Origin: a candidate division WOR-3 bacterium
GTDB taxonomy: Bacteria; Hydrothermota; Hydrothermia; UBA1063; CAJXJZ01
Reading direction: 5' to 3'
NCBI GenBank assembly: GCA_026986775.1
Contig: JALSNX010000028.1
Coordinates: 7,609-71,608 of the forward strand
Length of the DNA stretch: 64,000 nt
Made by a program: the position numbers and the translations under genes. Positions 7,240-34,899 of the stretch are shown here, one piece after another; within the stretch, counting starts at the first letter, position 1, and each line of letters starts with the position of its first letter. The notes below the pieces were generated by a model. That model did no database searches and had not been told where the DNA came from. It was given only the letters and a program-made list of their open reading frames with translations.

Positions 7240-9235
7240 GTCTATAAATCACGAATCTTTTATTTTCAAAAACTTTTCTTAATAAAGCCCTGCCACTTAT
7301 TTCAGTATCATCAATCTCCCTGTTGCAGATGATTTCGCGGGGCACAATGAAATAATCAATGTGATATTTATCAGAAAGGACTTCTTCTGGAAAATTTCCT
7401 TTACCCTCAAAGTATTCATCAATTTTCCGTGCTATTTTCATTCTTTTGTACCATTCTATTGCAAACCTTCTGTTAAACACACCTTTTCCGCCGTCAGTAA
7501 ACAGGACAAATACATTTCTTAATAACCTATTTCTTAGCCATACTCCTACAAGGTTATCTCTGTTCCAGACGTAAAAAACATCATTCTCATTGGTATGATC
7601 TTTTATCCATGAGAATACCTCATTTAATAACCACCTGTTTCTGTATTCTGGTAGGTAGCTTTTAATATTAACACTCCGCAAATATGAATTAAATATCTCC
7701 GTTTCATCTCTTAATATGCGGTTTATAGTATCGTCTTTCCCTTCACTATAATTACTCAAGGCATATAGACCGGACAAAAGAATCATTGAGGCAAGTAGAG
7801 TTTTGAAAGCAAAAAGGGAGTTCCTGACACTCCACAGATATGCGAACAATACACAGGCACTCAGAGCAATAACTAAATAAATTAATACTGGGACTGGCTT
7901 TTGAAGTAGAACGAGCCAGGATGAATAAAGAAATATGACATCTCCACTTAGTAAAATAAGGGAAATAAGCCATACCGGCCAATATCTTTTTTTTGAATAT
8001 AATAATAGACCTTTACTTTTTGTAAACACAAACAGTATACCCAGTATACCCGTCAATGGTAAAACCATAAACTCATATACAATATTAAAAATAACCAAAA
8101 TAGTGAGTAACCATAGAAAAATAATATTTTTCAAAAACAAATTGTTGATTTTAAATGAAATTATATTATAAAATGAACTTAAAAAGAGTATTAATAAAAT
8201 TACTCTAAAAAAAATAGTTACTCTGAGCAGTTGTAAAGACAATAATGGCTGAACGGGAAATAGAGAAGAAATAACCCCAATAATTGCACTTAATAATGAG
8301 AATATCACTAAATAGTGTATTTTCAATACATCTTTTTTTGCTAAACTCATTCTACCAGTATATGATAACATTTTGTATAAAATAGCATAAGAAATTATAC
8401 CCACTGGAAGCAATATAAGATATATGATATTATATTGCTGATCAAAGAACAAAAAAAGATAGCCACTCCTTAAGATACTTAGCCATTCACTGTCAACGAT
8501 TTTCAGATTCAAAATATGTACAGGAGTAAAACGATAATTCACTATAAAGTACAACGTCAATAAAATTATACTCCCAGCTAATACAATCAAAAATTTTGCT
8601 CTACTATCAAATTCACAAAATCTTGTCTTATAATAATAATAAAAAACTGCACCAATAATAGGTATAGGTGTAATAACATGAAATGCAAGTGCTACAAGTA
8701 GCATTATACCTGCCAGAACATACCGTTCCTTTCTGTAAAATGATATTGCTATTAGAGAAAGTGCAAAAGATATATTACGTGGAACAAGTCCATAGGGATT
8801 AAACACTCTAATGAAAGTAAATAAATATGGAGTTACAGGAGGGAGGAAAACAAGAGGTAAAAAGAGGCTGAATATTTTTCTTTTAGAAATCCAGTAAGAA
8901 AGGTCAAAAAGTCCCCAGAAGATTATGAACTTGGTGATAATATCCAAAATATTTATTATATTTAGTAGCTTAAGTTTAAATGCCCTGTGAATACCAATTA
9001 TTATATTATCGTATATAGTAAAATTTGTTTGTAAAAAAGTAGTGGTTAAATCGTGATTTAGCAACTTAGGATCAATCTTATGTATTATCTCAGGAAGATA
9101 ATGCCAGGCAAGGTCACCATATAAAGTGTAATGTCCGGGAAGAACAAGAAAACTAAACATCGTATAAATAGCAAAAATTAGTGACAGATAAATAAACCCT
9201 GTAGTGTTTTCTTCCAATTCTCTTAACTTCAACAT
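7208..9235 (-). CDS. Large polytopic membrane protein with C-terminal soluble domain (GT-C-like architecture; function unknown)
   Basis: 675 aa. About 12 predicted TM helices in the first roughly 440 aa, then a roughly 200-aa hydrophilic C-terminal domain. Strongly AT-rich codon usage (I/L/F/Y/N/K rich) compared with its neighbours. Start overlaps the stop of the upstream gene at 9235 (translational coupling). Confidence 0.6.
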   Translation of the reverse strand: MLKLRELEENTTGFIYLSLIFAIYTMFSFLVLPGHYTLYGDLAWHYLPEIIHKIDPKLLNHDLTTTFLQTNFTIYDNIIIGIHRAFKLKLLNIINILDIITKFIIFWGLFDLSYWISKRKIFSLFLPLVFLPPVTPYLFTFIRVFNPYGLVPRNISFALSLIAISFYRKERYVLAGIMLLVALAFHVITPIPIIGAVFYYYYKTRFCEFDSRAKFLIVLAGSIILLTLYFIVNYRFTPVHILNLKIVDSEWLSILRSGYLFLFFDQQYNIIYLILLPVGIISYAILYKMLSYTGRMSLAKKDVLKIHYLVIFSLLSAIIGVISSLFPVQPLLSLQLLRVTIFFRVILLILFLSSFYNIISFKINNLFLKNIIFLWLLTILVIFNIVYEFMVLPLTGILGILFVFTKSKGLLLYSKKRYWPVWLISLILLSGDVIFLYSSWLVLLQKPVPVLIYLVIALSACVLFAYLWSVRNSLFAFKTLLASMILLSGLYALSNYSEGKDDTINRILRDETEIFNSYLRSVNIKSYLPEYRNRWLLNEVFSWIKDHTNENDVFYVWNRDNLVGVWLRNRLLRNVFVLFTDGGKGVFNRRFAIEWYKRMKIARKIDEYFEGKGNFPEEVLSDKYHIDYFIVPREIICNREIDDTEISGRALLRKVFENKRFVIYRLGNKKEQQHG

Positions 9236-10089
9236 TATTCGTTTTTCCTATGATGCTCCACTAGATTGCTTGTGCTTTTTACTGTTCCATCACTGTCAAT
9301 ATAAAATCTCCCACCATAAGGGTCTTGAGGTATTTTTTTCATATACCCCTTTTGTTTAAGTTCATTTAAATCATACGGTAATCTGCCCTCTTTCCTTTTA
9401 AAGGCCTCCACTGCCCTCTCTATTTTAAGAACTCCAAGTAAAGCCTTTTTTCTCTTTAAAAGTTCCCTTTTCCAGTTTTCATCATCTGTATTCTTAATCT
9501 GACCGTCAAGAATATTCAGTGCTATTTCTGTTCTTCCCGAGGCGTAATAGAGTCTTGATGCAAGAGAGGCGAGAAAGGCGCTGCGTTTTAATTTTGCTGC
9601 CTCTGTCATATACTCAGCAGCAAGGTCATATTTCTTCATGAAGTAAAAATAATTAAAACTCAGAAGGAAATACCAGAACCAATCGCTTTTTCTGTATTTT
9701 ATGGCCCTTTTCAAGACCTTTTCCGCATCACTGTATCTTTTAAAATCCCACATCAGATTCAACGAAGCAATATAGTAAATGTCAAAATAATACGGATTTA
9801 AAGCACTTGCCACTCTGTAAGCCTTAAATACAACATCCCCCACCCATTCTGGAAAGTATGGATGCTGTTCAAGTATGGTCGCAAGAAATACACGTAAATC
9901 AAGAGTAACCCAGAAACTTCTTATTCCCTCATAGTCCAGGCTCATAATTTTTTCTGCCTCTGGTGAAAGGAGAAAAAGCCCTGCATTGGCCTTTTGAATC
10001 TTCCTGTATCGGGATATCTCAGGAACCATATAGGAATTTGTAGCAATCAGAAGACCTGCCAGCAAAAACCCCAAAAACACTCTCTTCAT
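9235..10089 (-). CDS. Secreted TPR-like protein with C-terminal GspG (T2SS pseudopilin)-like domain
   Basis: 284 aa. Hydrophobic N-terminal signal (MKRVFLGFLLAGLLIA) with no prepilin G|FTLIE site, and helical TPR-like repeats. The C-terminus KGYMKKIPQDPYGGRFYIDSDG matches the GspG/EpsG core motif GGYI[KR]RLP[KQ]DPWGxxYQ. Confidence 0.6.
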   Translation of the reverse strand: MKRVFLGFLLAGLLIATNSYMVPEISRYRKIQKANAGLFLLSPEAEKIMSLDYEGIRSFWVTLDLRVFLATILEQHPYFPEWVGDVVFKAYRVASALNPYYFDIYYIASLNLMWDFKRYSDAEKVLKRAIKYRKSDWFWYFLLSFNYFYFMKKYDLAAEYMTEAAKLKRSAFLASLASRLYYASGRTEIALNILDGQIKNTDDENWKRELLKRKKALLGVLKIERAVEAFKRKEGRLPYDLNELKQKGYMKKIPQDPYGGRFYIDSDGTVKSTSNLVEHHRKNE

Positions 10090-10859
10090 TTTATCTCTTT
10101 TTTCTGAAAAAAAAGAATGCTCAAAAGGATAAGAATAAAACTGTATATAAGCCCATATAGAAGGACAAGTATGTAATGTCCCGAACCGATTGAAAGCCCA
10201 TAAGAGAGCGATATCTTCATATCAAAGAAGGAAAAATTTGGAAAAATATAATACGCCGATTTTACAAGAAATTTTGAAATTAGAGGAATGTTCTCTGCTC
10301 GTTTTGTCTGAATAAATTGTACAGCATCGTCAAGATTGACACCAATCACGTAAATAAATAGTATTATGAAGGAAATAAGAACAGGCCGTTTACTGGCATT
10401 TATAAGAAAGTAAGCAAGAGAGGTAATAAGTAGCATCATAACCCATAAAAGTGGTAACTGAAGAAAAAGAACAGTTTTGAATTCTTTAAACAACAGGGCA
10501 TTGAGAATAACAAAGCCAGATAGCATGAGCGTGCTTGTAAAAATACCTGAAAAAACTATTCCGAAAACCCTTCCAAGGATATAATCCATTCTTTTCAGAG
10601 GCAGGGACAGCAGGTACTCAATGGTCTTTTTATTGAGGTCCTCTGTCAAAAAAGAAAAAATCAGGAAGAAGACAAGAACCAGAGTCAAAAACTCGGTGAC
10701 TGAAAGGGAATAGGTAAACATTACTTTTGATGCTTCAAACATGGTAAAATCATTTACAATGAAGTAAATAAAAAGCGAAAATAAATACAGAATCAATGTA
10801 CTGTAAAATGCCCTTTCTTTAACAGCCTCTTTAAGCGTGAGATACAGCATCCGCACCAT
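10086..10859 (-). CDS. ABC-2 family transporter permease
   Basis: 257 aa, about 6 TM helices, no soluble domain. Overlaps the ATPase gene upstream and the TPR gene downstream by 4-29 nt. Confidence 0.7.
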   Translation of the reverse strand: MVRMLYLTLKEAVKERAFYSTLILYLFSLFIYFIVNDFTMFEASKVMFTYSLSVTEFLTLVLVFFLIFSFLTEDLNKKTIEYLLSLPLKRMDYILGRVFGIVFSGIFTSTLMLSGFVILNALLFKEFKTVLFLQLPLLWVMMLLITSLAYFLINASKRPVLISFIILFIYVIGVNLDDAVQFIQTKRAENIPLISKFLVKSAYYIFPNFSFFDMKISLSYGLSIGSGHYILVLLYGLIYSFILILLSILFFQKKEIK

Positions 10860-22197: not shown

Positions 22198-23238
22198 TTA
22201 AAAATCCACATCCACTTCTCGTAAATACCTGGCAGCCTCTTCTGGAATGGTGGGGTTGATATGAAGTCCGGAACCCCACTCAAAGCCTGCTATTTTTGTG
22301 ATCCTTGGGACCAATTCTATATGCCAGTGGTAGTCATACTCTATTGTTGACCAGTAATGCGGTCTTCCAGGACGTTCATGGGTGGAAGGTGCTGTATGCA
22401 AAATCATGTTAAATGGCGGGTCATTGAGAACGACCTTTATTCTGTAAAGCATCTGCTTCAGCGCATAGGCTACATGGTAAAGCTCATCATCATTTAAAAG
22501 TGCAAAATCGTGTAAATGCTTTTTGGGAATAAGCCATGTTTCAAAGGGAAAGGAGGAGGCATATGGTTCCCAGATTACAAAGTGTTCGTTTTCCCATACT
22601 ATCCTTTCTCCCAACATTAGTTCCTGAGCCAGTATATCACACATGAGACACCTTTCTTTTCTCTTAAAGTGTTCCTGAGAGGCGGTAAGCTCTGTTGTTA
22701 CCACGGTTGGCACCATGGGAGTTGCTATTAACTGAGAATGGGGATGTTCAAGAGATGCACCTGCTTCTCTGCCATGATTTTTAAAAACAAGAATGTATCT
22801 GAATCTGATGTCCTTTCTCAAATCACGTATCCTTTCCCTGTATGCAACAAGAACATCTTTTATTTCTTCAACACTCCTGTCAGCCATGTGTGAATCATGC
22901 TTGGGTGTCTCTATTATTACCTCATGAGCACCTATACCACTTACCTTGTCAAAAAGTCCTACTCCCTCTCTTTTAAACTCACCTTCTATTCTCAGTGCAG
23001 GGAATTTATTTGGCACAACTCTTACCTTCCAGCCTGAGGTATTGGGTTCTCTATCATTTTTGTCTGTTATCACAAAGATTTCTGGTGGGGTTTTGTCTTC
23101 ATGACCATAGCAAAAAGGGCATAAAGCTCCCTTTTTCTTCTCTTCTTTAGGTATTTTGAAATCATGAGGCCTTCTACCTCTTTCCGTGGCTATAATAGTC
23201 CACCTTATCCTTAAAGGATCATATCTTATTTCTGGCAT
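22198..23238 (-). CDS. GalT-like hexose-1-phosphate nucleotidyltransferase (HIT superfamily, class I GalT family)
   Basis: 346 aa. Zn-binding CPFCxGHE, active site HPHSQ (compare GalT HPHGQ), duplicated half-barrel. Confidence 0.75.
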   Translation of the reverse strand: MPEIRYDPLRIRWTIIATERGRRPHDFKIPKEEKKKGALCPFCYGHEDKTPPEIFVITDKNDREPNTSGWKVRVVPNKFPALRIEGEFKREGVGLFDKVSGIGAHEVIIETPKHDSHMADRSVEEIKDVLVAYRERIRDLRKDIRFRYILVFKNHGREAGASLEHPHSQLIATPMVPTVVTTELTASQEHFKRKERCLMCDILAQELMLGERIVWENEHFVIWEPYASSFPFETWLIPKKHLHDFALLNDDELYHVAYALKQMLYRIKVVLNDPPFNMILHTAPSTHERPGRPHYWSTIEYDYHWHIELVPRITKIAGFEWGSGLHINPTIPEEAARYLREVDVDF

Positions 23239-23239
23239 A

Positions 23240-25279
23240 CTATTCCTCCATTTTCAAACTCACGTTAAATATCTTGTGTTTAAGCGGATAGGTGAATATA
23301 ATACTGCTTCCCTGATACACCATATCCATTCCAGACTCTGACTGGGAAAGAGTGTAAACAGGGTAAACCCATATTCCACATTCCTCTGAACACACAAATT
23401 CTAATTTAATACCAAAATACTCATCTTCTATAACAAGCATATCACCTTTTCCTTCAAACATCTCCGCATTACCATGGTACTCTGCATCTTTTAGCCTGAA
23501 TACAGGTTTTACAAAATGGAGATTGAACTCAACCCCTGAAAGTAAAGTGAATGGTACCCTGCCTTTTGTATTAAGGGTAAAACTCACTGTATTTCCATCA
23601 AGTACAACTTTCTTGGCAACCTCAAATGGATAATTTCCGTTCTCTGTATATATTCCTCCATTTCTGTGAAGATAGATGGTTCTCTTTGCTCTGTCTGTTC
23701 TCAGGTTATACGGCATGTTAACAAAATCTCCCAGTTCTCTGAATTTCATATATCTCAGCATAGAAACGGTAGTATCAGGTGGTAATATATGGAAAAGCAG
23801 GGACCTTCGCTCATACCAGTCATAAACCATTTCCTTTTTGACACGAGAAGACACATACCGTTTAATCTCATGGATTGATTTTGCCTCATCCTGTTTTCCT
23901 TCTTCTTTTACTTCAACATCCTTGTGGTAGTGTTCAAATCTACGCGTAAGTGTGTCCTGAAAATTGATGCCCTTTTCCATGGAGGAAAGTTCATAAATAC
24001 TTCCATCTTTTGCTGTAATGCCTACAGAAAGCTTGCTATTTTTCATATAAACCTCATCATAGCCATCTGCATCCATGTCATCACGCACAAAAATGTCACG
24101 AGAGACCATCTTTTCCGCTGTAAGGAGATTTGAATACACTGCCCTGCGAAGATGTGGAAGGTAAAGCCCACCAAAGACACCATGCCAGTAAGCATCGTTG
24201 GCCTGTCCCCTCATAAGATGCAAAAGTGCCCTGCCCTTTTTGCTTCCCTCATATGAGTTGACCAGATTGGAAACAAAAATCATCTTTTTGTGCATTATGT
24301 TTGCTTCTGTATATTTTACCAGAAAATTCTTCCAGATTCCACCCTTTATAAACATCCTGTTGGCTTCAAACATCCTGTTTTTTCTCAGATAGTCCACAAA
24401 ATCAGTGAATTTAACGGCCACATCTGATGGTAACGACCATTCTCCCATCTCAAAATACGACGACGAGGGAAGATACACCCTGCCCAATGGTTTTCTTTTT
24501 TTCATATATCCTGAATACGTATCCGTCTCTACAAAGTCTGATGCCAGAACCAGCTCAATAAACTCCTTTAACCATCCTTTTTCATAAACCCACTCAAATG
24601 TGCCAGGCCATACGCCAAACTTTTCACCATCATCAAAAATGCATGCAGCATCAGAGGGGGCATTATCCCTTACCCATTTAAGATAATCCATAATTTCCTC
24701 TGGCTTTTTAAAGGGAATGAGATACCTGAGAGTCTGATTAATGGGAAATACTCCTATCTTTTTACCTTCAGACTCCGTATAGTAGTAGCCGAATAGATTC
24801 CTGTCTGATATACCTGCCTGAAGGAAATGGTAATCATCCACAACAACATAGGAAAGCCCTATATCAACAAGCGTCTTCAAAACATCACTTTCAAAAACCC
24901 TTTCCGTAAGCCAGAGTCCTGAAGGTCTTGTTCCAAATTTCTTTTTTATGTATGAAAGTGATTTTTTTATTTGATGACGTCTATCCATCTCCGGAATGGC
25001 AGCAAGAACTGGCTCATAAAACCCGCTTATTACAATCTCAATCTGATTTTTTGCCAGCATTTCTCCAATTATATCCATAAACTCTGGATGCTTGTCCTCA
25101 AAAAACTCCCACAGAGCTCCTGTAAAATGAACGGTGAATTTAAAATCAGGATATTTTCCGGCCACTTCCATGAACGGAAGGTAACTCTTCCTGTAGGCTT
25201 CTTCAAAAACAAAATCAAAATTGCCTACTGGCTGATGGGAATGAAGCCCAAGAAGAAGCGTGACCTTTTTATTCTTCAT
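23240..25279 (-). CDS. Glycoside hydrolase family 57 alpha-glucan enzyme (amylase / 4-alpha-glucanotransferase type)
   Basis: 679 aa. N-terminal GLHSHQPVGNF (the GH57 HQP motif) and conserved GH57 regions. Confidence 0.8.
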   Translation of the reverse strand: MKNKKVTLLLGLHSHQPVGNFDFVFEEAYRKSYLPFMEVAGKYPDFKFTVHFTGALWEFFEDKHPEFMDIIGEMLAKNQIEIVISGFYEPVLAAIPEMDRRHQIKKSLSYIKKKFGTRPSGLWLTERVFESDVLKTLVDIGLSYVVVDDYHFLQAGISDRNLFGYYYTESEGKKIGVFPINQTLRYLIPFKKPEEIMDYLKWVRDNAPSDAACIFDDGEKFGVWPGTFEWVYEKGWLKEFIELVLASDFVETDTYSGYMKKRKPLGRVYLPSSSYFEMGEWSLPSDVAVKFTDFVDYLRKNRMFEANRMFIKGGIWKNFLVKYTEANIMHKKMIFVSNLVNSYEGSKKGRALLHLMRGQANDAYWHGVFGGLYLPHLRRAVYSNLLTAEKMVSRDIFVRDDMDADGYDEVYMKNSKLSVGITAKDGSIYELSSMEKGINFQDTLTRRFEHYHKDVEVKEEGKQDEAKSIHEIKRYVSSRVKKEMVYDWYERRSLLFHILPPDTTVSMLRYMKFRELGDFVNMPYNLRTDRAKRTIYLHRNGGIYTENGNYPFEVAKKVVLDGNTVSFTLNTKGRVPFTLLSGVEFNLHFVKPVFRLKDAEYHGNAEMFEGKGDMLVIEDEYFGIKLEFVCSEECGIWVYPVYTLSQSESGMDMVYQGSSIIFTYPLKHKIFNVSLKMEE

Positions 25280-25291
25280 ATCTTACCTCCT

Positions 25292-27355
25292 TCAGACAAT
25301 CCAGTTTTCCTCAACATCCTCCCGGGATATTAGTCGCAAAATATAGAACCCGCTTGCGGGAAATCTCTCCTGAACAATCTCTTTTACAATAATTTTTATA
25401 GCAAGTGCTACAGTTGTATCATCAAGCATAACCTTGCCAAGTGGGACAGAGCACTCAAATACTTTACCCTTCACACAATCTCCGTATTTTCCTTCAACAA
25501 TTTCAAATATTTTGTGCCCCTCAATATCAAAAAACTCTATTCCAATAATACTTTCCATACTTTCAAGAGATTTTTCGCCTTCCACCCTCAGATAAAGATT
25601 ATTCTCATCTCTTCCAAAGAAGAGTCTTGTAAGCGAGGATTTACCCCTTTGCATTACTCCACCCTGTCCGCTTTCAAGGTCAATAACACCAGCACCCAGC
25701 CATTCAAAGAAGTTGGTTACTTTACCATCAAGAGTAGGAGAAATAAAATCACTCTCCTCCTCTATTACATATGTTCTCTTTCTTGTCACGCGTACTGGTA
25801 CATCAAGAAATCCCGGTACATTTCTGCCCAATTTTCTGTAAATCTCTTTTAGATGCTCTCTAAATAGTACATCAAATGTCTCAGCATAAAACGTGGGATT
25901 GTCATCTCCATACCACCAGAACCAGTCCGAACCTTCAGCATATATAAGCTCCATCTCTGCATGACTTTGCTCTTTTAAACTATCTTTGACTTCGTTCTTT
26001 ACGCGAACCAGGTATTCCCATGCTTTGTTTTTTTCAGGATGTCCTATCCATGTGGTGAAATCTGACCTTATCCATGACCCCGGGTGTAACCTCACAAGTT
26101 TTTTACTTTCATGGTTCAGTAAATCTTCTCCCGTCACAAACTCAACCATACCTGAAGCTTCAAGTGTTGAAAATAGTTTCTTCAAAAAGGGTACTCCACC
26201 GTCTTTATAGTTTTCCCAGGGGTTTTCTCCATCAAGAATAATACTTACAACCTCTCCGCCATGCAACACAATGTTTCTTATCCTGTCCATAAAATAAGAA
26301 ATTGCTTTTTCCTTACTCAATCTGTATAAATCAAAGCCTATGCTATCAGACAGTTCCCTATCTCTAAATAAAATCCTGACACCATTAAACTCATATATTT
26401 TGTAAATTTCTGAGGGAAAGTCTCCATTGCGGATTACGTATCCCAGAGATTTTTCCAGTATACCCTCATCAGTACCCACCCACTTTACATCATGCACCCG
26501 GGCAAGATTAATAAATTTTTCAGAAACACCACCCTCAGCAGGCCACATCCCTGAAGGTCTTTTTTTGAATACGGACTCTATGTAATCCATACCAAGTAAA
26601 AGTTGCCTCTCTGCATTTTTCGGGAACCTCCACCTTGTTTCAGGGAGACGAGTATATGGATTTGAAACTTCTGCACAGGATGAGTCTATAAGTAAAGGTG
26701 AGATCGGATGCGCATAGGGTGTAAATGTTATTTCTATCTTGCCTTCTTCCTGCAATTTTCTATAAAGAGGCACAATACGAGAAAGTAAAGTTTTATGCAC
26801 TTCTAAAACCACAGTCTTGTCTTCCTCGCTGTATCCGTAATCTTTTCTTTTTAACTCACCAAGCTCTGGAAACTCTTTTATTGCATAAACAGAGGTGTTA
26901 TAAAGATAAAACAGAATCTGAAGGTCCCTTATCTCACTCGTGGTAAACCTGCTAACCTTTTTTTCTATATCATAGGGACTACCCCTCTTGTCCAGAAGAT
27001 ACAAATAACGCTTTGAGTTTTTGAGCTTCGTGTTGTAATTTAAAGAAAAGAAGTTTTTCAGAATAAATACTCTCTCTTCAAAAGAAAGTGATTCAGCATC
27101 CTTTTTGAAATGTTGTAGAAACACATCCTCAAAATCGTTATTTATATAATCGTTGAGCTGTTCAATGAGGCTCGGAACAAAATTAATGGTGAGCTTTATG
27201 TTATCAATGTCTTCTATCACACGTGCCACATCGTAATATTCTCTTATTCCGTGCATATAAACCCATGGCATGAGATAAACATTCTTTCCGTCCTTTCTTA
27301 TACGATAAACGGGCTGGTGCATATGAAACAAAAACAGAATCTTTACTTTATCCAT
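25292..27355 (-). CDS. Glycoside hydrolase family 57 protein, second paralog (branching-enzyme/amylase-like)
   Basis: 687 aa. FHMHQPVYR GH57 signature at the N-terminus. Confidence 0.75.
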   Translation of the reverse strand: MDKVKILFLFHMHQPVYRIRKDGKNVYLMPWVYMHGIREYYDVARVIEDIDNIKLTINFVPSLIEQLNDYINNDFEDVFLQHFKKDAESLSFEERVFILKNFFSLNYNTKLKNSKRYLYLLDKRGSPYDIEKKVSRFTTSEIRDLQILFYLYNTSVYAIKEFPELGELKRKDYGYSEEDKTVVLEVHKTLLSRIVPLYRKLQEEGKIEITFTPYAHPISPLLIDSSCAEVSNPYTRLPETRWRFPKNAERQLLLGMDYIESVFKKRPSGMWPAEGGVSEKFINLARVHDVKWVGTDEGILEKSLGYVIRNGDFPSEIYKIYEFNGVRILFRDRELSDSIGFDLYRLSKEKAISYFMDRIRNIVLHGGEVVSIILDGENPWENYKDGGVPFLKKLFSTLEASGMVEFVTGEDLLNHESKKLVRLHPGSWIRSDFTTWIGHPEKNKAWEYLVRVKNEVKDSLKEQSHAEMELIYAEGSDWFWWYGDDNPTFYAETFDVLFREHLKEIYRKLGRNVPGFLDVPVRVTRKRTYVIEEESDFISPTLDGKVTNFFEWLGAGVIDLESGQGGVMQRGKSSLTRLFFGRDENNLYLRVEGEKSLESMESIIGIEFFDIEGHKIFEIVEGKYGDCVKGKVFECSVPLGKVMLDDTTVALAIKIIVKEIVQERFPASGFYILRLISREDVEENWIV

Positions 27356-29844
27356 TGCTTTATTCTTTTCACATACTCCCTGTGAAGTTTCTCAGCCTCA
27401 TCTCTGTTCAGTGCTTCCACGAACACATGAAAGTAAGGCTCAAATTCATCTGGATGAATCATCACCCACGAATCTTTATACACTATTTTGATACCATCAA
27501 GGAATGAGGCTTCCTCTCCATGAGCAAGTTCACTCATCTTTCTCATAACAGTTCCTTTTCTATCCCACGGACAGGCGACCTTTTCATGTATAAAATATGG
27601 CCTCTTTAAATCACTGTAAAAGCCATTGATATCCTTTCCAACTCCTGCAAGCATTTCCAGTATTTTACCGATTGCAAACATACCATCTTCTGCTATCTGA
27701 AACTCCGGAAAAATAAAGGCGCCATTCCCCGATGCTACAAGTTTCATATCCGGTGTCTTTGCCTCCTGCGCCATAACTCTTGGATTTGTTGCAATAGGTC
27801 TTACTTCAAAGCCCATTCTCTCGCCTTCTTCAAACACAATTTTAGGAGTATAGGGTGGCACTGCAATGACACCATGTTCGCCATAGGAAAGGGTAAGCAT
27901 GGAGACAAAAACCAGAAGGTCAATACCCTCTATAACATTGCCTCTGTTATCCACAACAATAATCTTCTCGCCATTGGGATAAAGATAAAATCCGACGTCA
28001 AATTTGAGAGATTTTACTATCTTCCCAAGTTCTATGAGCCTCTTTTTGATAACCTCTTCACTCTTAGAAATCTTCCTGTAATCACTGTAAGAATTGAGTG
28101 TAACTACATCCTCAACAAGCTCCTCTATCATGTACAAAAATCTTGGGGCGGTTGTTCCATTTGAGAGGTCAAGAACAATTCTAAACTTCCGTTGCCTTAT
28201 TAGCTCTGTGTTAAGAGCCTTTTTAAATCCCTCCTCATAAAAATCCCAGAGCCTTGTTTCAAAGCTAATACTTCCCACCTCATAATGATGGGCACGCCTG
28301 AAGTCTTCCCTGTAATAAATTCTTTCTATGGATTTGGCTTCAGAACCTGATATATCAACACCATTAGAGTCATAGAAATAGATTTCTGTGGATTCAGGCT
28401 CAGTGGGAGACTGTTTGAAGTAAACGCCTCCCATCTCACCAAAAGTTTGAAGTTTATATCTTAAAACAGGTATTGGAATGTTCTGTGCGTCCTTTACCTG
28501 CACTCCCGTGGACGCAAGTCCACCCATAAATGACCTTCTAAGCATTCTTGAGGCAGGATGTGCATCCCTTCCCAGTAAGATGGTTGCATTTCTCGGTAAC
28601 ACTGTTCCGTATGCAGAACCAAGTTTGGTGGTCATTTCAGGCGTAAGCTCAATATTTGTAAGCCCCTTTATAAATGAACCCTGAAACAGTGCCTTTTTCC
28701 ATTTCTCACCCCATACAAGGTTAAAAGATACAACTGAACCCTGCTCTATCTTCTTACTCGGCCATATTTTTATCCCCTCTTTAACAACAGACTCCCTTCC
28801 TATTCTGCACTCATCCCCTATAACCGCACCCTCCTGAATATGAACATTCTCCTCAACATAGACTCCATTCATTAAAACTGCTTTCTCAATTTTTGTGGCC
28901 TTTTTGAGATAAACATTATCCCAGAGTATTGCACCATCAAGAACAACATCGTCCTCTATTACACAATTATTGCCTATAACCGAGAGCCTTATCTTGGAGT
29001 TTTTGCCGATCCTGGTATTATTACCTATGATAATGGTACCCTGAAAGTTTACATTCTTTCCCAAAACCACATCCTCCCCGATACGAACATCCCTTCCTAC
29101 AAGGTCAAGCTTCTTTCCCGGCACTTCAACGTTAACCATACCATTTAAAATATCGTAATTTGCCAGTCTGTATGAATCAGGGTCTCCTATATCCCTCCAG
29201 TACCCTTCTGATATAAAACCAAACAACCTTTTCTTTTCATTCAGAAGTGCTGGGTAGAGATTCTTTGAAAAATCATATTCCTCATCCTGTGGTATCCTTT
29301 CAATCATCTCGTCGGTAAGAAGGTAAATACCGGTATTTATGGTATCAGAAAATACCTCTCCCCATGTGGGCTTTTCCAGAAACTTAATTATTCTACCCTC
29401 TTCATCTGTAATAACTATACCAAATTGAAGTGGATTATCCACTCTGGTAAGACCGATGGTAACATCAGCAGATTTTTTGTTGTGAAAATCAAGCATTTCT
29501 GAAAGTTCAAAGTCAGTGAGAAGGTCACCACTTATGATAAGATAAAGGTCATCAGGAAATCTATCCCTTGCAAACCTTACAGCACCAGCGGTTCCAAGGT
29601 CTTTATTTGGTATAACATAGTTTATCCTCACTCCGAAATCACTTCCATCGCCGAAAAAGTTCTTGATATATTCTGGGTGATAATAAAGGAGCATAACGAT
29701 ATCAGTTATACCATGTCTTCTAAGAAGTTTCACTATATGCTCCAGGACAGGACGATTTACAAGAGGAAGCATGGGTTTTGGAATATTTACGGTAAGGGGC
29801 CTTATTCTGGTCCCGAACCCACCTGCCATTACAAAGGCTTTCAT
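27343..29844 (-). CDS. Sugar-1-phosphate nucleotidyltransferase (left-handed beta-helix) fused to a degenerate phosphohexomutase-like domain
   Basis: 833 aa. N-terminus MAGGFGTRIRPLT (GGxGTRxxPLT), hexapeptide-repeat region, and a C-terminal alpha-D-phosphohexomutase fold in which all four catalytic loops are altered (QSPTEP, YPNGEK, SGNGAF, HPDEFEP). Confidence 0.75.
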   Translation of the reverse strand: MKAFVMAGGFGTRIRPLTVNIPKPMLPLVNRPVLEHIVKLLRRHGITDIVMLLYYHPEYIKNFFGDGSDFGVRINYVIPNKDLGTAGAVRFARDRFPDDLYLIISGDLLTDFELSEMLDFHNKKSADVTIGLTRVDNPLQFGIVITDEEGRIIKFLEKPTWGEVFSDTINTGIYLLTDEMIERIPQDEEYDFSKNLYPALLNEKKRLFGFISEGYWRDIGDPDSYRLANYDILNGMVNVEVPGKKLDLVGRDVRIGEDVVLGKNVNFQGTIIIGNNTRIGKNSKIRLSVIGNNCVIEDDVVLDGAILWDNVYLKKATKIEKAVLMNGVYVEENVHIQEGAVIGDECRIGRESVVKEGIKIWPSKKIEQGSVVSFNLVWGEKWKKALFQGSFIKGLTNIELTPEMTTKLGSAYGTVLPRNATILLGRDAHPASRMLRRSFMGGLASTGVQVKDAQNIPIPVLRYKLQTFGEMGGVYFKQSPTEPESTEIYFYDSNGVDISGSEAKSIERIYYREDFRRAHHYEVGSISFETRLWDFYEEGFKKALNTELIRQRKFRIVLDLSNGTTAPRFLYMIEELVEDVVTLNSYSDYRKISKSEEVIKKRLIELGKIVKSLKFDVGFYLYPNGEKIIVVDNRGNVIEGIDLLVFVSMLTLSYGEHGVIAVPPYTPKIVFEEGERMGFEVRPIATNPRVMAQEAKTPDMKLVASGNGAFIFPEFQIAEDGMFAIGKILEMLAGVGKDINGFYSDLKRPYFIHEKVACPWDRKGTVMRKMSELAHGEEASFLDGIKIVYKDSWVMIHPDEFEPYFHVFVEALNRDEAEKLHREYVKRIKQWIK

Positions 29845-30215
29845 TTTTTTCTCTCCGAAAGAAGCCTTTTAATTTCGTTTTTAAGCTCTGTGAGATCTGC
29901 CTGTTTAACCACGTAGGCATCAGCAAACCAGGACATATAATCTTCCTGATAGGAAACATAAGCAGTACTCAGAATAACAGGTATCTTGAGTTCTTCCTTC
30001 ACAATTTTCTGAAGGGCATCAAGTCCTGACATACCTTTCATCTTTATATCAAGAACTATCAGGTCTATATCCCTATCCTTTTGAAGTATCTCTAAAGCTT
30101 CTTCTCCACTTGATGCAAGCAGTACCTCATACCCTTCTTTGGTAAATGTTGTTTTGTAGAGCAATCTTATGTTGTCTTCGTCGTCCACAAACAAAATCCG
30201 AGGCTTCTTATCCAT
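29841..30215 (-). CDS. Single-domain response regulator (CheY-like receiver)
   Basis: 124 aa. Acidic pocket DDE, phospho-acceptor D in LIVLDIKM, conserved T/S and K. Confidence 0.85.
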   Translation of the reverse strand: MDKKPRILFVDDEDNIRLLYKTTFTKEGYEVLLASSGEEALEILQKDRDIDLIVLDIKMKGMSGLDALQKIVKEELKIPVILSTAYVSYQEDYMSWFADAYVVKQADLTELKNEIKRLLSERKK

Positions 30216-30279: not shown

Positions 30280-31854
30280 TTATAAAAGTCCTTTTCTCAA
30301 AGCTTTAAATCTATACATTTCACTATCGGCCTCTTTAATGAGCTTTGTAAGTTTTTTGCCATGCTCTGGATAAATGGCAACCCCATAGGAAAAGGAATGG
30401 GGCTTTTCAGTTTCCCCACCTATCTTTTCAAGGCTTTCCTTTTCAAATATTTCCTTTATCCTTTCTATGGTGCTTACTGCCTCCTCTCTATCAGAACCCC
30501 ACAGTATAACTATAAATTCATCGCCTCCGTACCGCACAATAAAATCGGACTTTCTGAGGTTCCTTTTAAACACTTCCACAAGTAATGTTAGAAGTCTGTC
30601 ACCATAGAGGTGACCCATGGTATCATTTACCCTCTTTAAGGAATCAAGGTCAATAAAGACAAGTGCAAATTTTCTTCGGTCTCTATCTGCTGTTGAAATA
30701 AGCCTTTCAAACTCGTTTTCAAGATAAGCATATGTGTATGCTCCTGTCAAACTATCAATAAAAGCAAGCTCCTTAAGACGCAGCATAACCTCTGCTGCCT
30801 GAAGAACAGGCGCTATCGTACCTGCAACGGCCTCTATGAACTGTCTGTCATACATTGAGAAGGAATCTTTTTCTTTGGATTCTATGTCAATCACACCCAC
30901 CACCTTATTTCTTATGATTACGGGTATGGCAATCTCTGACTTTACATCTTCCCCGGGAGTGGGATAAAATCTCAAATCTCTGGAAACGTCGTTGGAAATA
31001 ACAGGCACCCTGTGTTTAAAAGCGTAAGTGGAAAGCCCCTTATCAGTCGGCATCCTTAAACCAACAACATTTTCGTTTGCTCCAACCTGTGCCACCACCT
31101 TCAGACTATTTCCTTCTGGCACAAGAAGAAAATACTTACCCTCTATCTTCAAAACATCTTTTATAATGAGAAGTACCCTTCTGAAGAAATTCTCAACATC
31201 GGAGAGATTCTTTATTTCCTCACCAATGCGGTAAATCGCCTGCAATCTGAGGATAGGAGCGTACAGTCTCTTTTCCCTTTTAATAATATCTTCATAATCG
31301 GTTGTATCAAATTTAATGGGTTTTAATACCCTGCAGGCAACCTCCACCACATCCGCATCCCACCTTGAACCAACGGACTTTTTAAGTTCAGCCTTGGCTT
31401 CCTTTGAGGTAAAAGCTTTACGATAAGGACGATCTTCTGTAAGGGCAGCATAAGCATTGCACACAGCCAGAATCCGAACTTCAAGTGGTAATGAGAGAGA
31501 TGGAATACCATCAGGATACCCCTTTCCATTGACATACTCATGGTGCCATCTTGCCCACTGCGCATAACTTTTAAGTGCATCTATTTTTCCAATAAGCTTT
31601 TCACTGTAAACCGGGTGTTCTTTCATAATAGCAATCTCTTCAGTCTCAAGATTACGTGTCTTGGTAAGCACCATCTCTGGAATTATAATCTTTCCTATAT
31701 CATGCAGAAAGGCTACATAGTATAGCTCATCGCTGTAAACACCCATGGCCTGAGCAACTTTCTTTGTGTACTCCGCTACCCTGTAGCCATGACCGAGAAG
31801 ATTCGGATGTCTCAGCTCTGGTAAAATTGACAAAAGTTCAACCCATTTTCTCAT
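30280..31854 (-). CDS. HD-GYP / GAF / GGDEF multidomain c-di-GMP signalling protein
   Basis: 524 aa. HD-GYP (HDIGK, HHEYVNGKGYPDG), central GAF, then a C-terminal GGDEF domain with an intact RYGGDEF and an RKSD I-site. Confidence 0.85.
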   Translation of the reverse strand: MRKWVELLSILPELRHPNLLGHGYRVAEYTKKVAQAMGVYSDELYYVAFLHDIGKIIIPEMVLTKTRNLETEEIAIMKEHPVYSEKLIGKIDALKSYAQWARWHHEYVNGKGYPDGIPSLSLPLEVRILAVCNAYAALTEDRPYRKAFTSKEAKAELKKSVGSRWDADVVEVACRVLKPIKFDTTDYEDIIKREKRLYAPILRLQAIYRIGEEIKNLSDVENFFRRVLLIIKDVLKIEGKYFLLVPEGNSLKVVAQVGANENVVGLRMPTDKGLSTYAFKHRVPVISNDVSRDLRFYPTPGEDVKSEIAIPVIIRNKVVGVIDIESKEKDSFSMYDRQFIEAVAGTIAPVLQAAEVMLRLKELAFIDSLTGAYTYAYLENEFERLISTADRDRRKFALVFIDLDSLKRVNDTMGHLYGDRLLTLLVEVFKRNLRKSDFIVRYGGDEFIVILWGSDREEAVSTIERIKEIFEKESLEKIGGETEKPHSFSYGVAIYPEHGKKLTKLIKEADSEMYRFKALRKGLL

Positions 31855-31915: not shown

Positions 31916-33706
31916 ATGACTGAGAAGAAAAAAATACTAAAAGGACCGGACTTTGCAAAGGGTATACTTACTGCAATTGCAAACCTTTTGAAAAGAAGGG
32001 AATTTTTGAACTCAATCAATGTGTTCCCGGTACCTGATGGAGATACCGGTTCTAACCTTTCACATACCCTGAAGGGAGCAGCACCCATACTCATAGAAGC
32101 AGGTGAACAGCTCAAACTGTGTGAAGTTGTCAAAAGATTTTCAGAATCTCTTGTTTTGGAGGCAAAAGGTAACTCCGGAGTTATTCTATCTCAATTTTTC
32201 ATAGAGTTTCAGGAGGCTATAAAAGGAAAAGAATCACTGACTGGAAAGGAGTTTGCAAAAGCCCTGAAACAGGCTGTTGATAATACCTACAGGGCAATAG
32301 AAAATCCTGTAGAGGGAACCATTTTGAGCGTTATGCGGGATTCTGCCAATGCGGCTTTAAAATCCGCTAAAAGACACGATACATTTGTTGATGTTCTTGA
32401 AGACGTATATCACGAGACTTTGAAATCACTTGAAAAGACAAAAAAGGCCATGCTCAGGCTGAAAGGTAAAGAGGTAATTGACGCAGGTGCCTTTGGCTAT
32501 TTTCTATTAATTGAAGGGCTTTACAGATATTTTAAAGACGGACATTATGAAATACCGGATATAGACTTTGAAGACGAGCAAAAGAAAAGCGATTATATAG
32601 AGCAGGAAGAAATTAAAGAGAGATACTGCACCGAAGCTGTTATTGAAGGCGAAAACCTTTCTCAGAAAAAATTAAAAATACTTCTGGCCGCCCTTGGAAG
32701 TTCTCTTATTGTAATGGGAGCAGGGAAACTGTTTCACATTCACGTTCATACCAACTGGCCGGATAAAGTGTTTGATGTTCTGAAAAAAGAAGGACGAATA
32801 ATAAAGAAGAAAATAGACGACATGATTCAGATGAATCAGGAGGCTCAGAAAAAGGAACTGGGAATAGTTGTGGACTCTGCCTCTGACATGCCCATAGACA
32901 CAGCTCAGGAAAAGGACATTTACATAGTGCCACTTACCGTATTTATTGATGGAACGCCATACAGGGAAGGCGTTGACATAACGAGGGAAGAGATTACAAA
33001 AATAATTCTTGAAGGAAAACACGAAATTAAAACCTCACAACCCTCACCCAATGATTTCAAACAGGCTATTGATAGGGCATTTGAGAAATACAGAAACGTT
33101 TTGATAATCACACTTTCGTCCAGTCTTTCAGGTACATTTGGAGCTGCCCAGCTTGCCCAGAAATCTTATAAAGATAAGAGTGAAAGCATATTCGTATTTG
33201 ACTCAAGAATGGCATCCTTAGGTGAGACTCTTCTGGCAATAAGAGCAAGAGAAAAAGCAGAGGAAGGATACTCTCCACGAGAAATAGTTTCATACCTCAA
33301 TAAACTGGTTTCCTACTCAAAGTATCTCCTCGTGGTGGGCGATCTGAAATCCCTTATAAAGCGTGGAAAAATAGGTAAAATAAGCGGCGCCATTGGAACC
33401 TACCTCAAAATAAAACCTATATTAACCTTTGATGAGCAGGGAGCATTATACGCCCAGGAGAAAATCATGGGTCTGGACAGGGCAATTAGAAAAATGGGAG
33501 AAATGCTTGAGGAATCTTTAAGGAAAACCTGGACATATGACTTTGGATTTACTCACTTTGCTTTTGAAGAGGGAATGAAAAAACTTGAAGAATTCGTCAT
33601 AAGCAGATTCTCAGCACATACTGTTTTCAGAACATGGGCTTCACCGGTAATAGGAGCCTATACAGGTCCTGATTCTGTGGGAGTTGTTGCCATACCAAGG
33701 ATATAA
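31916..33706 (+). CDS. DAK2 domain / DegV fusion protein (YloV family)
   Basis: 596 aa. N-terminal DhaL-like (PVPDGDTGSN) and a C-terminal DegV/EDD fatty-acid-binding-like domain. The only credible plus-strand gene in the window. Confidence 0.8.
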   Translation: MTEKKKILKGPDFAKGILTAIANLLKRREFLNSINVFPVPDGDTGSNLSHTLKGAAPILIEAGEQLKLCEVVKRFSESLVLEAKGNSGVILSQFFIEFQEAIKGKESLTGKEFAKALKQAVDNTYRAIENPVEGTILSVMRDSANAALKSAKRHDTFVDVLEDVYHETLKSLEKTKKAMLRLKGKEVIDAGAFGYFLLIEGLYRYFKDGHYEIPDIDFEDEQKKSDYIEQEEIKERYCTEAVIEGENLSQKKLKILLAALGSSLIVMGAGKLFHIHVHTNWPDKVFDVLKKEGRIIKKKIDDMIQMNQEAQKKELGIVVDSASDMPIDTAQEKDIYIVPLTVFIDGTPYREGVDITREEITKIILEGKHEIKTSQPSPNDFKQAIDRAFEKYRNVLIITLSSSLSGTFGAAQLAQKSYKDKSESIFVFDSRMASLGETLLAIRAREKAEEGYSPREIVSYLNKLVSYSKYLLVVGDLKSLIKRGKIGKISGAIGTYLKIKPILTFDEQGALYAQEKIMGLDRAIRKMGEMLEESLRKTWTYDFGFTHFAFEEGMKKLEEFVISRFSAHTVFRTWASPVIGAYTGPDSVGVVAIPRI

Positions 33707-33717
33707 AAGAAAGAGTA

Positions 33718-34899
33718 TCAGAAATGTCTATTTTTTACTCCAGCACGTGCTCTGAAAAGCTCAATCATCTCTTTTAAACTTCTTAATGACGCATCGGGGT
33801 CTTTTAGAGCAAGTTTTGTATGATTTAGAACCCTTAAAACCCAGAGTTTAAAAAGAAGCTTTCTCCATTCTTCAATGGTAGGGTCAAAATGTTTCATAAA
33901 TATCTCATAGGACTCATACCATAGTGTCGGATTCATAAAATCGTAATCTCCATCAGAAATTGCTTTTGATACCCTTTCTCTTATATGGGAGGGGAAGTAC
34001 TCTAAAAGCAATGACTTCATCTTCTCGGTCCACCCCTCTTTAAACTCTCTTATAGTACCATCTATATCAAAGGCTATACGGGTCTTGTATTCCTGTGGAA
34101 CCTCCACTGTATTGTCTTTATGGTAAACCATTCTATCCGTATCTATCCTGAGGTTTTTATTTTCCCGTATAAAATCAAAGCACTCCACAGTCATGGTTTC
34201 AAGGTCACTGAGTTTGCCATAGAGTTTATGGTGCTTTCCCTCTTTAATATAAACCTCATACAGTTTAACCCCATATCTTGCAAAAGATATAGTCAAAGCT
34301 GTATCTATGGACCAGTCACTCGCCTCTAAAACAATTTTATCTTTTGCCAGTCGTTCTGCAACTTCTCGTGTAAACCCCAGTTCTCCTCCAAGTGGCTGCT
34401 CTATATCGGGAAGAATTGTATGTGGCCACACATACGCAAAGCCGGTTCTCGTAATATTCCATGTAACCATTGCATCTGTATAGGCTCTCGGGAAAAAGCA
34501 TCTTGATACATGGTATCCTTCATCAAGCCTAAGCTGTACCCTATCAATCCATGTTCTGGAAAAGGACTTTATATCAGCATCGTAAAAGTGCAGAAATTTC
34601 TCTTTTCCTCTCTCAACAAAATATTGAATTGCAGTATTCATCCCATCACCCTTACCCGCTCGTCTTTTTGTTCCAAGTCTCTTCTGTATTATAAGTGATA
34701 TTCTGCTTTTTTCCTCTGCTTTAAGCGTGCTTATAAAATCAGATATACCTCTGTAAGTCTCATTTTCATTATAACCTACCAGAATTACATGCCCCACTCT
34801 TTCATGAGAAAGAGCCTCTTTTATATTATTTTTGAAATCTTCCACGTTTTCTTTTTTGAAGGGAAAACAAACGGCAATGTCTTTTTGCCCCTTTTCCAT
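33718..34899 (-). CDS. GT-A retaining glycosyltransferase resembling glycosyl-3-phosphoglycerate synthases (GpgS/MpgS type)
   Basis: 393 aa. AVCFPFKKEN (compare GpgS VVIPALDEE), RRAGKGDGMNTA (compare PGKGEALWRS), HFYDADI (DxD). Confidence 0.45.
   Translation of the reverse strand: MEKGQKDIAVCFPFKKENVEDFKNNIKEALSHERVGHVILVGYNENETYRGISDFISTLKAEEKSRISLIIQKRLGTKRRAGKGDGMNTAIQYFVERGKEKFLHFYDADIKSFSRTWIDRVQLRLDEGYHVSRCFFPRAYTDAMVTWNITRTGFAYVWPHTILPDIEQPLGGELGFTREVAERLAKDKIVLEASDWSIDTALTISFARYGVKLYEVYIKEGKHHKLYGKLSDLETMTVECFDFIRENKNLRIDTDRMVYHKDNTVEVPQEYKTRIAFDIDGTIREFKEGWTEKMKSLLLEYFPSHIRERVSKAISDGDYDFMNPTLWYESYEIFMKHFDPTIEEWRKLLFKLWVLRVLNHTKLALKDPDASLRSLKEMIELFRARAGVKNRHF

Follow-up and report, generated by a model that had tools for sequence, protein, structure and literature searches.

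The gene at 27343..29844 on the minus strand of a 64,000-nucleotide stretch of DNA from a candidate division WOR-3 bacterium (positions 7,609 to 71,608 of contig JALSNX010000028.1, GenBank assembly GCA_026986775.1; hereafter the window) encodes a sugar-1-phosphate nucleotidyltransferase (NTase), a left-handed beta-helix (LbH) and a domain with the alpha-D-phosphohexomutase fold whose catalytic apparatus is missing, all in a single open reading frame of 833 codons plus stop. We consider this fusion to be, with a probability of roughly 0.6, a nucleoside diphosphate (NDP)-glucose pyrophosphorylase for glycogen synthesis that carries a non-catalytic, probably regulatory or scaffolding, pseudo-mutase. 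In the mechanism that we propose, the NTase and LbH parts would make NDP-glucose, either UDP- or ADP-glucose, from glucose-1-phosphate and a nucleoside triphosphate; a GT5 glycogen synthase would use this product, and the fusion would thereby fill the role held by GlgC in the classical pathway. The dead mutase would not supply the glucose-1-phosphate; as a non-catalytic module it would most probably regulate or scaffold the NTase through allostery, oligomer assembly or the docking of partner proteins.

A first-pass annotation of the window, made by a model from the letters alone, had drawn attention to the range 27343-28700, which is the 3' portion of this open reading frame and corresponds to residues about 382-833. 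The four-domain phosphohexomutase fold itself occupies amino acids (aa) 385-833 (27346..28692; all features are on the minus strand unless stated otherwise), as placed by alignment, structural model and Foldseek. With phmmer, aa 387-819 aligned end to end with the phosphomannomutase/phosphoglucomutase (PMM/PGM) PH0923 of Pyrococcus horikoshii (1wqa, E = 6e-55), and HMMER returned further whole-length Protein Data Bank (PDB) matches of the C-terminal half, namely the archaeal-type PMM/PGMs 9du5, 2f7l and 9ix8; Pfam recognised domains I and II of PGM_PMM. An AlphaFold2 model built from 52 homologues had a mean predicted local distance difference test score (pLDDT) of 83 and a predicted template modelling (TM) score of 0.61, and beyond aa 520 most of its 10-residue blocks averaged a pLDDT of at least 90. 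Placed on PH0923 by Foldseek, the model gave a target-normalised TM score of 0.86 with a root-mean-square deviation of 3.2 A, and the target-normalised scores ranged from 0.82 to 0.88 across PH0923, the Thermococcus kodakarensis PGM and the Pseudomonas aeruginosa PMM/PGM. The C-terminal half is therefore, as a fold, a member of the alpha-D-phosphohexomutase superfamily (four alpha/beta domains around a central cleft), which is what the first-pass annotation had proposed. A PDB sequence search found no solved structure of the whole fusion.

The register of the catalytic loops was taken from HMMER alignments and from a MAFFT alignment including PH0923, which agree with each other. The canonical phosphoserine loop TASHNP aligns with K477-Q-S479-P-T-E482 (28399..28416), in which S479 is kept and the His and Asn are lost. 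The metal loop DGDADR aligns with Y622-P-N-G-E-K627 (27964..27981), the sugar loop GEENGG with A704-S-G-N-G-A709 (27718..27735), and the phosphate loop RASGTEP with H797-P-D-E-F-E-P803 (27436..27456), the Pro-Asp pair of which is a signature of the family. None of the four conforms to the patterns of active mutases (T/S-A-S-H-N-P, D-x-D-x-D-R, G-E-x-S/N-G-H/G and R-x-S-x-T-x-P), and two further catalytic residues are replaced, the Arg of GxRG by Lys and the Lys of YNGIK by Tyr. The earlier claim that all four loops are altered is thus confirmed residue by residue against PH0923. Its register was correct for the metal and phosphate loops and one residue off for the serine and sugar loops, and with that shift corrected S479 proves to be retained.

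The same annotation had allowed that canonical loops might be present and merely displaced. This candidate was rejected, since regular expressions run over the whole sequence matched no shifted canonical mutase motif in this protein. The protein also scores well below the curated cut-offs for the archaeal GlmM equivalog TIGR03990 (230 versus 439 bits) and for PgmG NF046027 (62 versus 600 bits). Judged from these alignments, the C-terminal ~450 residues are predicted to be a complete phosphohexomutase fold unable to act as a mutase: because it has neither the His/Asn beside the Ser nor a metal site, general acid/base residues or a phosphate clamp, such a domain could not be expected to supply glucose-1-phosphate. 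The loop alignment likewise supports the description, already given in the first pass, of a pseudo-mutase fused to an active-looking NTase.

Whether the substitutions are family-wide had been posed as a question for a multiple alignment, and they are. A word-indexed protein search gave 6772 matches at E <= 1e-10; the best 120 come from WOR-3, Hydrothermia and Geobacteraceae, and every one of them is a fusion about 835 aa long. When representatives of clusters at 50% identity were searched exhaustively with HMMER, 150 relatives were recovered at identities of 30-53%. Most of these are full-length, and those with names belong to Dadabacteria, Ignavibacteriales, Calditrichota, Clostridia, Thermoprotei, Helarchaeota and Thermogladius; a search seeded with one archaeal member added Staphylothermus, Bathyarchaeia, Fimbriimonas, Dictyoglomus and Carboxydochorda. 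About 375 full-length homologues from bacteria and archaea were inspected, the most distant at about 30% identity, and not one has an SH[NL]P-type serine loop.

Residue counts, which rest on 140 full-length (at least 780 aa) cluster representatives, show how far the loss goes. The catalytic Ser is kept in 58/140 and the His beside it in 3/140. The first, second and third metal Asp are kept in 74/140, 25/140 and 16/140, respectively, the third being Glu in 98. In the phosphate loop, the Arg survives in 8/140 (Leu in 79), the Ser in 12/140 (Asp in 110) and the Thr in 5/140, and across the family the loop has turned acidic and hydrophobic, reading L/H-P-D-x-[E/D]-E-P. About 25/140 representatives have the sugar loop deleted. 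The Ser position varies between A, S, C and T even among close relatives and is therefore not under selection as a nucleophile.

The decay is graded. One clade (P0342-P0372, with P0131 similar) keeps a D[GS]DADR metal loop, a GGEE[TS]GG sugar loop and a partial phosphate loop, HPSSEEP; its serine loop reads V-S-M-L-E-I-D-P. This loop-retaining clade scores about 285 bits against PH0923, versus 160-180 for the clade of the window and for the Geobacter, Desulfurococcales and Armatimonadota types, and its members appear, from sequence, to be those least diverged from real mutases. The pattern would fit an early loss of catalysis in every checked member, followed by lineage-specific erosion of the ligand-binding loops.

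Such a clade also resembles the binding-competent, non-catalytic intermediate that one would expect if the domain were a sugar-phosphate sensor, with the old cleft binding glucose-6-phosphate, glucose-1-phosphate or glucose-1,6-bisphosphate and signalling allosterically to the NTase. The fold and the cleft are preserved, and the clade closest to canonical mutases is without the serine loop only, its metal, sugar and partial phosphate loops being kept. In the protein studied here and in most of the family, however, the phosphate loop has lost its Arg, Ser and Thr and has gained Pro-Asp and further acidic residues, the sugar-loop glutamates are gone where the loop is not deleted outright, and the Arg of GxRG and the Lys of YNGIK have been lost as well. 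A cleft that is acidic and in part hydrophobic would be expected to repel sugar phosphates. Because the pocket has this character and the sugar loop is lost, sensing through the old pocket is unlikely here, and we regard the sensor as an unlikely general explanation; the sensing module put forward in the first-pass annotation is doubtful for this protein and plausible for the loop-retaining clade.

The dead domain has been retained. It is full-length in all examined bacterial and archaeal lineages, and it is kept under purifying selection: compared with the nearest available relative (L004, WOR-3, 81% identical), the NG86 method gave a nonsynonymous divergence (dN) of 0.123, a synonymous divergence (dS) of 2.90 and a ratio of about 0.04, which is only approximate with dS near saturation. 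Within the family, the NTase averages 52% pairwise identity and the LbH 31%, with the four mutase subdomains lying between 23% and 34%. Several positions of the mutase-like part are conserved in a family-specific manner and differ from PH0923, namely R462 (122/140), P663, C758, K763, G764, M767, R768 and P798-D799. Part of these fall in the motif CPWDRKGTVMR (27541..27573) at the start of mutase domain IV, which across the 140 representatives takes the form CPWxxKGxxMR (C 82%, K 79%, G 92%, M 77%, R 92%) and is absent from PH0923, and the former phosphate loop has become a family motif of its own, LPDxxEP. That the domain has been retained, with conserved motifs of its own and fused in cis, suggests that it serves to control or organise the NTase without catalysing a reaction, a role that we infer to be regulatory or scaffolding.

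The NTase domain spans aa 1-235 (29140..29844) and matches PF00483 (NTP_transferase) over aa 2-233 with 182 bits against a gathering cut-off of 21. The LbH follows at aa 250-372 (28729..29097), with hexapeptide repeats matched by PF25084 and PF00132 over aa 252-370 and short beta strands throughout the model. All features of PF00483 membership are present: GGxGTRxxPLT, the following Lys, the Asp of SGD, EKP and the Asp of YWxDxG. The first of these reads GGFGTRIRPLT at aa 8-18 (29791..29823), intact as the first-pass annotation had stated, and this nucleotide-binding signature is 91-96% conserved in the 140 representatives. The EKP motif at aa 157-159 (29368..29376), which holds the sugar-phosphate-binding Lys of this NTase family, is 100% conserved, and the signatures R13, K23, D107, E157-K158-P159 and D218 together are 96-100% conserved in the family. 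By these motifs, the N-terminal half is a genuine member of the PF00483 NTases and appears to be active.

The NTase half falls below the NCBIfam thresholds for the GlgC, mannose-1-phosphate guanylyltransferase, RmlA and GlmU equivalogs; for GlgC, the scores are 125 versus 425 bits (TIGR02091) and 138 versus 470 bits (NF003670). Its PDB matches are NDP-sugar pyrophosphorylases. Among solved NTases, tlr0611 (8x7s) comes nearest, with 195.6 bits over aa 1-316 at about 33% identity, and its deposition names it a UTP-glucose-1-phosphate uridylyltransferase. For comparison, plant GDP-mannose pyrophosphorylase scores 165 bits and human GMPPB 147 bits, and the NTase-LbH part also matches GMPPA, GMPPB and the gamma and epsilon subunits of eIF2B. 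Given tlr0611 as the closest solved relative and the glycogen synteny described below, glucose-1-phosphate seems more likely to be the substrate than mannose-1-phosphate.

A genome scan with one genome per GTDB species found at least 600 pattern matches, and 554 of the 600 listed encode a relative of the fusion; the best 80 loci were kept and, together with three earlier ones, give a set of 83. The gene order in these loci is response regulator (71 loci), fusion, glycoside hydrolase family 57 (GH57) protein (64), GalT-like protein (48) and GT5 glycogen synthase (40), and both order and strand are constant save for one stray response-regulator match. More distant members are in agreement with this context. 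In Hydrothermia the fusion is followed by two GH57 genes, a GalT-like gene, a GH57 branching enzyme and a small NTase. A Clostridia member lies amid two GT5 synthases, a GalT-like gene, a GH57 branching enzyme and CBM53. Around the fusion of the P0131 lineage are a GalT-like gene, three GT5-type open reading frames, one of them cut short at 215 aa, together with GH57 and a debranching enzyme (GDE), and the loop-retaining clade (locus L089, fusion at 8001-10490) has the order GDE, GH57, fusion, GT5, GalT-like, GT5, DUF5752. Glycogen synthase and glucan-remodelling genes are co-encoded with the fusion both in the 83-locus operon and in these four lineages, and it is from this context that we infer a GlgC-like position in the pathway. 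The GalT-like member of the operon, which is found in the archaeal-type clusters too, could be an ADP-/UDP-glucose phosphorylase or exchange enzyme.

Two side observations belong to these clusters. DUF5752 recurs in the glycogen clusters of L086 and L089 and is fused C-terminally to a 958-aa member of the family (P0432). On a Calditrichota-type contig (L088, 5488-10493), two NTase-LbH paralogues of 408 and 420 aa precede the fusion, an arrangement reminiscent of the GlgC/GlgD or GMPPA/GMPPB hetero-oligomers. Apart from a 235-aa NTase in 3 of them, the 83 loci yielded no further NTase homologue that spans half or more of the NTase-LbH query; no search was made with GlgC.

Within the window, the fusion has the following neighbours. 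Its stop codon is overlapped or abutted by the gene of a 687-aa GH57 family protein (25292..27355), the start of which is ambiguous: the longest open reading frame begins 13 nt inside the 3' end of the fusion, and the public call in L001 lies 11 codons downstream. A second GH57 protein of the alpha-amylase/4-alpha-glucanotransferase type follows (23240..25279; PF03065, PF09094, PF09095), and then a GalT-like class I hexose-1-phosphate nucleotidyltransferase (22198..23238) with intact CPFC zinc and HPHSQ catalytic motifs. On the other side lies a single-domain (receiver-only) response regulator (29841..30215), the stop codon of which overlaps the start codon of the fusion (ATGA), with an HD-GYP/GAF/GGDEF signalling protein (30280..31854) upstream of it.

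The response regulator is directly upstream of the fusion in 68/72 informative loci, and a GAF histidine kinase stands before the regulator in 53. The type of sensor differs: where the window has the HD-GYP/GAF/GGDEF protein, Geobacteraceae have a GAF histidine kinase. Such an arrangement suggests that glycogen synthesis is under the control of a signal. It also favours an account in which the dead mutase would be a protein-docking platform, a surface on which the response regulator, the glycogen synthase or the GH57 protein controls or channels NDP-glucose synthesis. The translational coupling of regulator and fusion indicated by the ATGA overlap, the conserved adjacency and the precedent of the GlmM-CdaA complexes, which are among the fold matches, are all in line with such a platform. 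Set against them, the regulator is not beside the fusion in Hydrothermia, Clostridia, the P0131 lineage or the loop-retaining clade, and therefore it is not a universal reason for keeping the domain. Docking of the co-transcribed receiver is attractive where its gene is present; as a rival explanation, we place the docking platform on the unlikely side, though somewhat ahead of the sensor.

Many homologues carry JGI or NCBI names of the type mannose-1-phosphate guanylyltransferase/phosphomannomutase or phosphoglucomutase. If these names were right, the fusion would be a true bifunctional mannose-1-phosphate guanylyltransferase/phosphomannomutase, or else a mutase with a non-canonical mechanism, the latter having been one of the suggestions of the first-pass annotation. 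The retained S479 is compatible with this, as is a mannosylglycerate-synthase-like glycosyltransferase (33718..34899; PF21969, PF21967) close to the fusion, whose donor would, from its family, be GDP-mannose or a related compound. Yet every phosphoryl-transfer element except the Ser is missing, the Ser is exchanged among close relatives, and the scores lie below the curated cut-offs of all mutase and mannose-1-phosphate guanylyltransferase equivalog models. A non-canonical mechanism finds no conserved nucleophile or metal ligands to work with, and part of the family has dispensed with the sugar loop altogether. As for the mannosylglycerate-synthase-like gene, it adjoins the fusion on this contig only, 1 locus out of 83, whereas the glycogen genes are conserved, and the fusion as its GDP-mannose supplier was rejected for that reason. 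This alternative, in either form, is in our judgement very improbable.

The NDP-glucose pyrophosphorylase with a dead, probably regulatory or scaffolding, mutase domain is thus the reading that we prefer, and several observations weigh against it. The best NCBIfam partial match of the NTase half is to a mannose-1-phosphate guanylyltransferase (NF052502, 281.6 bits versus a cut-off of 440), and the mannosylglycerate-synthase-like gene lies 4 kb from the fusion. A glycogen synthase was not found within the 64-kb window. Glycogen neighbours are absent in three lineages, Thermoprotei, a Thermogladius-like archaeon and Fimbriimonas. The sample of 83 loci is dominated by Geobacteraceae and WOR-3, so that its counts are not phylogenetically independent, and to these points the near-saturated dS behind the selection estimate has to be added.

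A more far-reaching version of the same reading can be put forward tentatively, and we hold it as possible rather than probable. The fusion would then be a hitherto unrecognised, GlgC-independent entry into glycogen synthesis, widespread in anaerobic bacteria and archaea and gated by a pseudo-enzyme derived from the preceding step of the pathway. The switch, working by allostery or docking, would be the dead phosphoglucomutase, wired to two-component signalling through the receiver in Desulfuromonadota and WOR-3, and the graded decay of the loops would record the passage from a bifunctional PGM/NTase to a regulator.

The remainder of the window can be described briefly. It was searched for a further PGM/PMM or NTase gene, for tRNAs and for Rfam elements, and none of these was found. 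A 596-aa protein encoded on the plus strand (31916-33706) has Dak2, FakA middle and DegV (FakB-like) domains and looks like a fusion of both fatty-acid-kinase components. GC content dips to 0.32 at 8001-10000, compared with about 0.40 elsewhere, and the AT skew changes sign there. GC skew is negative over almost the whole window, and most genes are on the minus strand.

In the open-access literature that we searched, which included a 2024 review of alpha-glucans and the Dictyoglomus genome paper, neither the fusion nor any NTase bearing a dead mutase was found described. Control of NDP-sugar pyrophosphorylases by pseudoenzymes is known already; what that literature does not describe is a dead copy of the upstream enzyme of the pathway that is fused in cis, encoded in a glycogen operon and present in two domains of life. 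The fusion represents a large, widespread and mis-annotated protein family, without published characterisation in the literature searched. The sequence contradicts the mutase part of its database names, and the gene context contradicts the mannose part, so that activities absent from Geobacter, WOR-3, Bathyarchaeia-like archaea and others may be attributed to them when their metabolism is reconstructed. The family further points to a route into glycogen without canonical GlgC in organisms relevant to bioelectrochemistry and subsurface carbon cycling. It also offers a pseudoenzyme series, in which the nucleophile loop has been lost in every checked member and the metal, sugar and phosphate loops stepwise by clade. 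Cultured relatives include Geomonas, Citrifermentans bremense and Geobacter hydrogenophilus.

Comparison with known systems places the fusion between several of them. With the archaeal-type PMM/PGMs (PH0923, 1wqa; T. kodakarensis PGM, 9du5) it has in common the four-domain fold over about 450 residues, with TM scores of 0.86-0.88, and it shares with PH0923 the structural residues N397, TPE 401-403, D427, E507, E513, R517, Y536 and D720. Unlike enzymes of the PH0923 type, it is without the His/Asn by the Ser, the metal Asp triad, the Glu-Glu of the sugar loop and the Arg/Ser/Thr phosphate loop, and its mutase fold is fused behind an NTase and an LbH. The best solved match to the NTase-LbH part is the CugP-type tlr0611 of Thermosynechococcus (8x7s), and the NTase catalytic signatures are common to both; tlr0611 differs in being a stand-alone protein of 401 aa without a mutase-like domain. 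Enzymes of the CugP type are reported (Maeda et al. 2014) to be UDP-glucose pyrophosphorylases that had formerly been annotated as mannose-1-phosphate guanylyltransferases. GlgC, the ADP-glucose pyrophosphorylase, belongs to the same superfamily (NTase plus LbH), and its pathway position, near glycogen synthase, branching or GH57 genes, would be alike; the fusion differs from it in scoring far below the equivalog cut-offs and in having an extra 450-aa domain.

The closest parallels for the pairing itself are GMPPA/GMPPB (7d72) and GlgD/GlgC, where an active NTase-LbH enzyme is likewise combined with a catalytically dead yet conserved module. In those pairs the dead partner is a paralogue of the NTase and a separate chain, whereas in the fusion it has another enzyme fold, that of the upstream pathway enzyme, and is attached in cis. 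The GlmM-CdaA complexes (7olh, 7ojs, 9g69) show a phosphohexomutase fold likewise paired with another enzyme as a protein-binding regulator, although GlmM remains catalytically competent as a mutase and regulates the diadenylate cyclase in trans. The effect of GMPPA on GMPPB and that of GlmM on CdaA provide precedent for a non-catalytic or regulatory partner of the kind proposed here.

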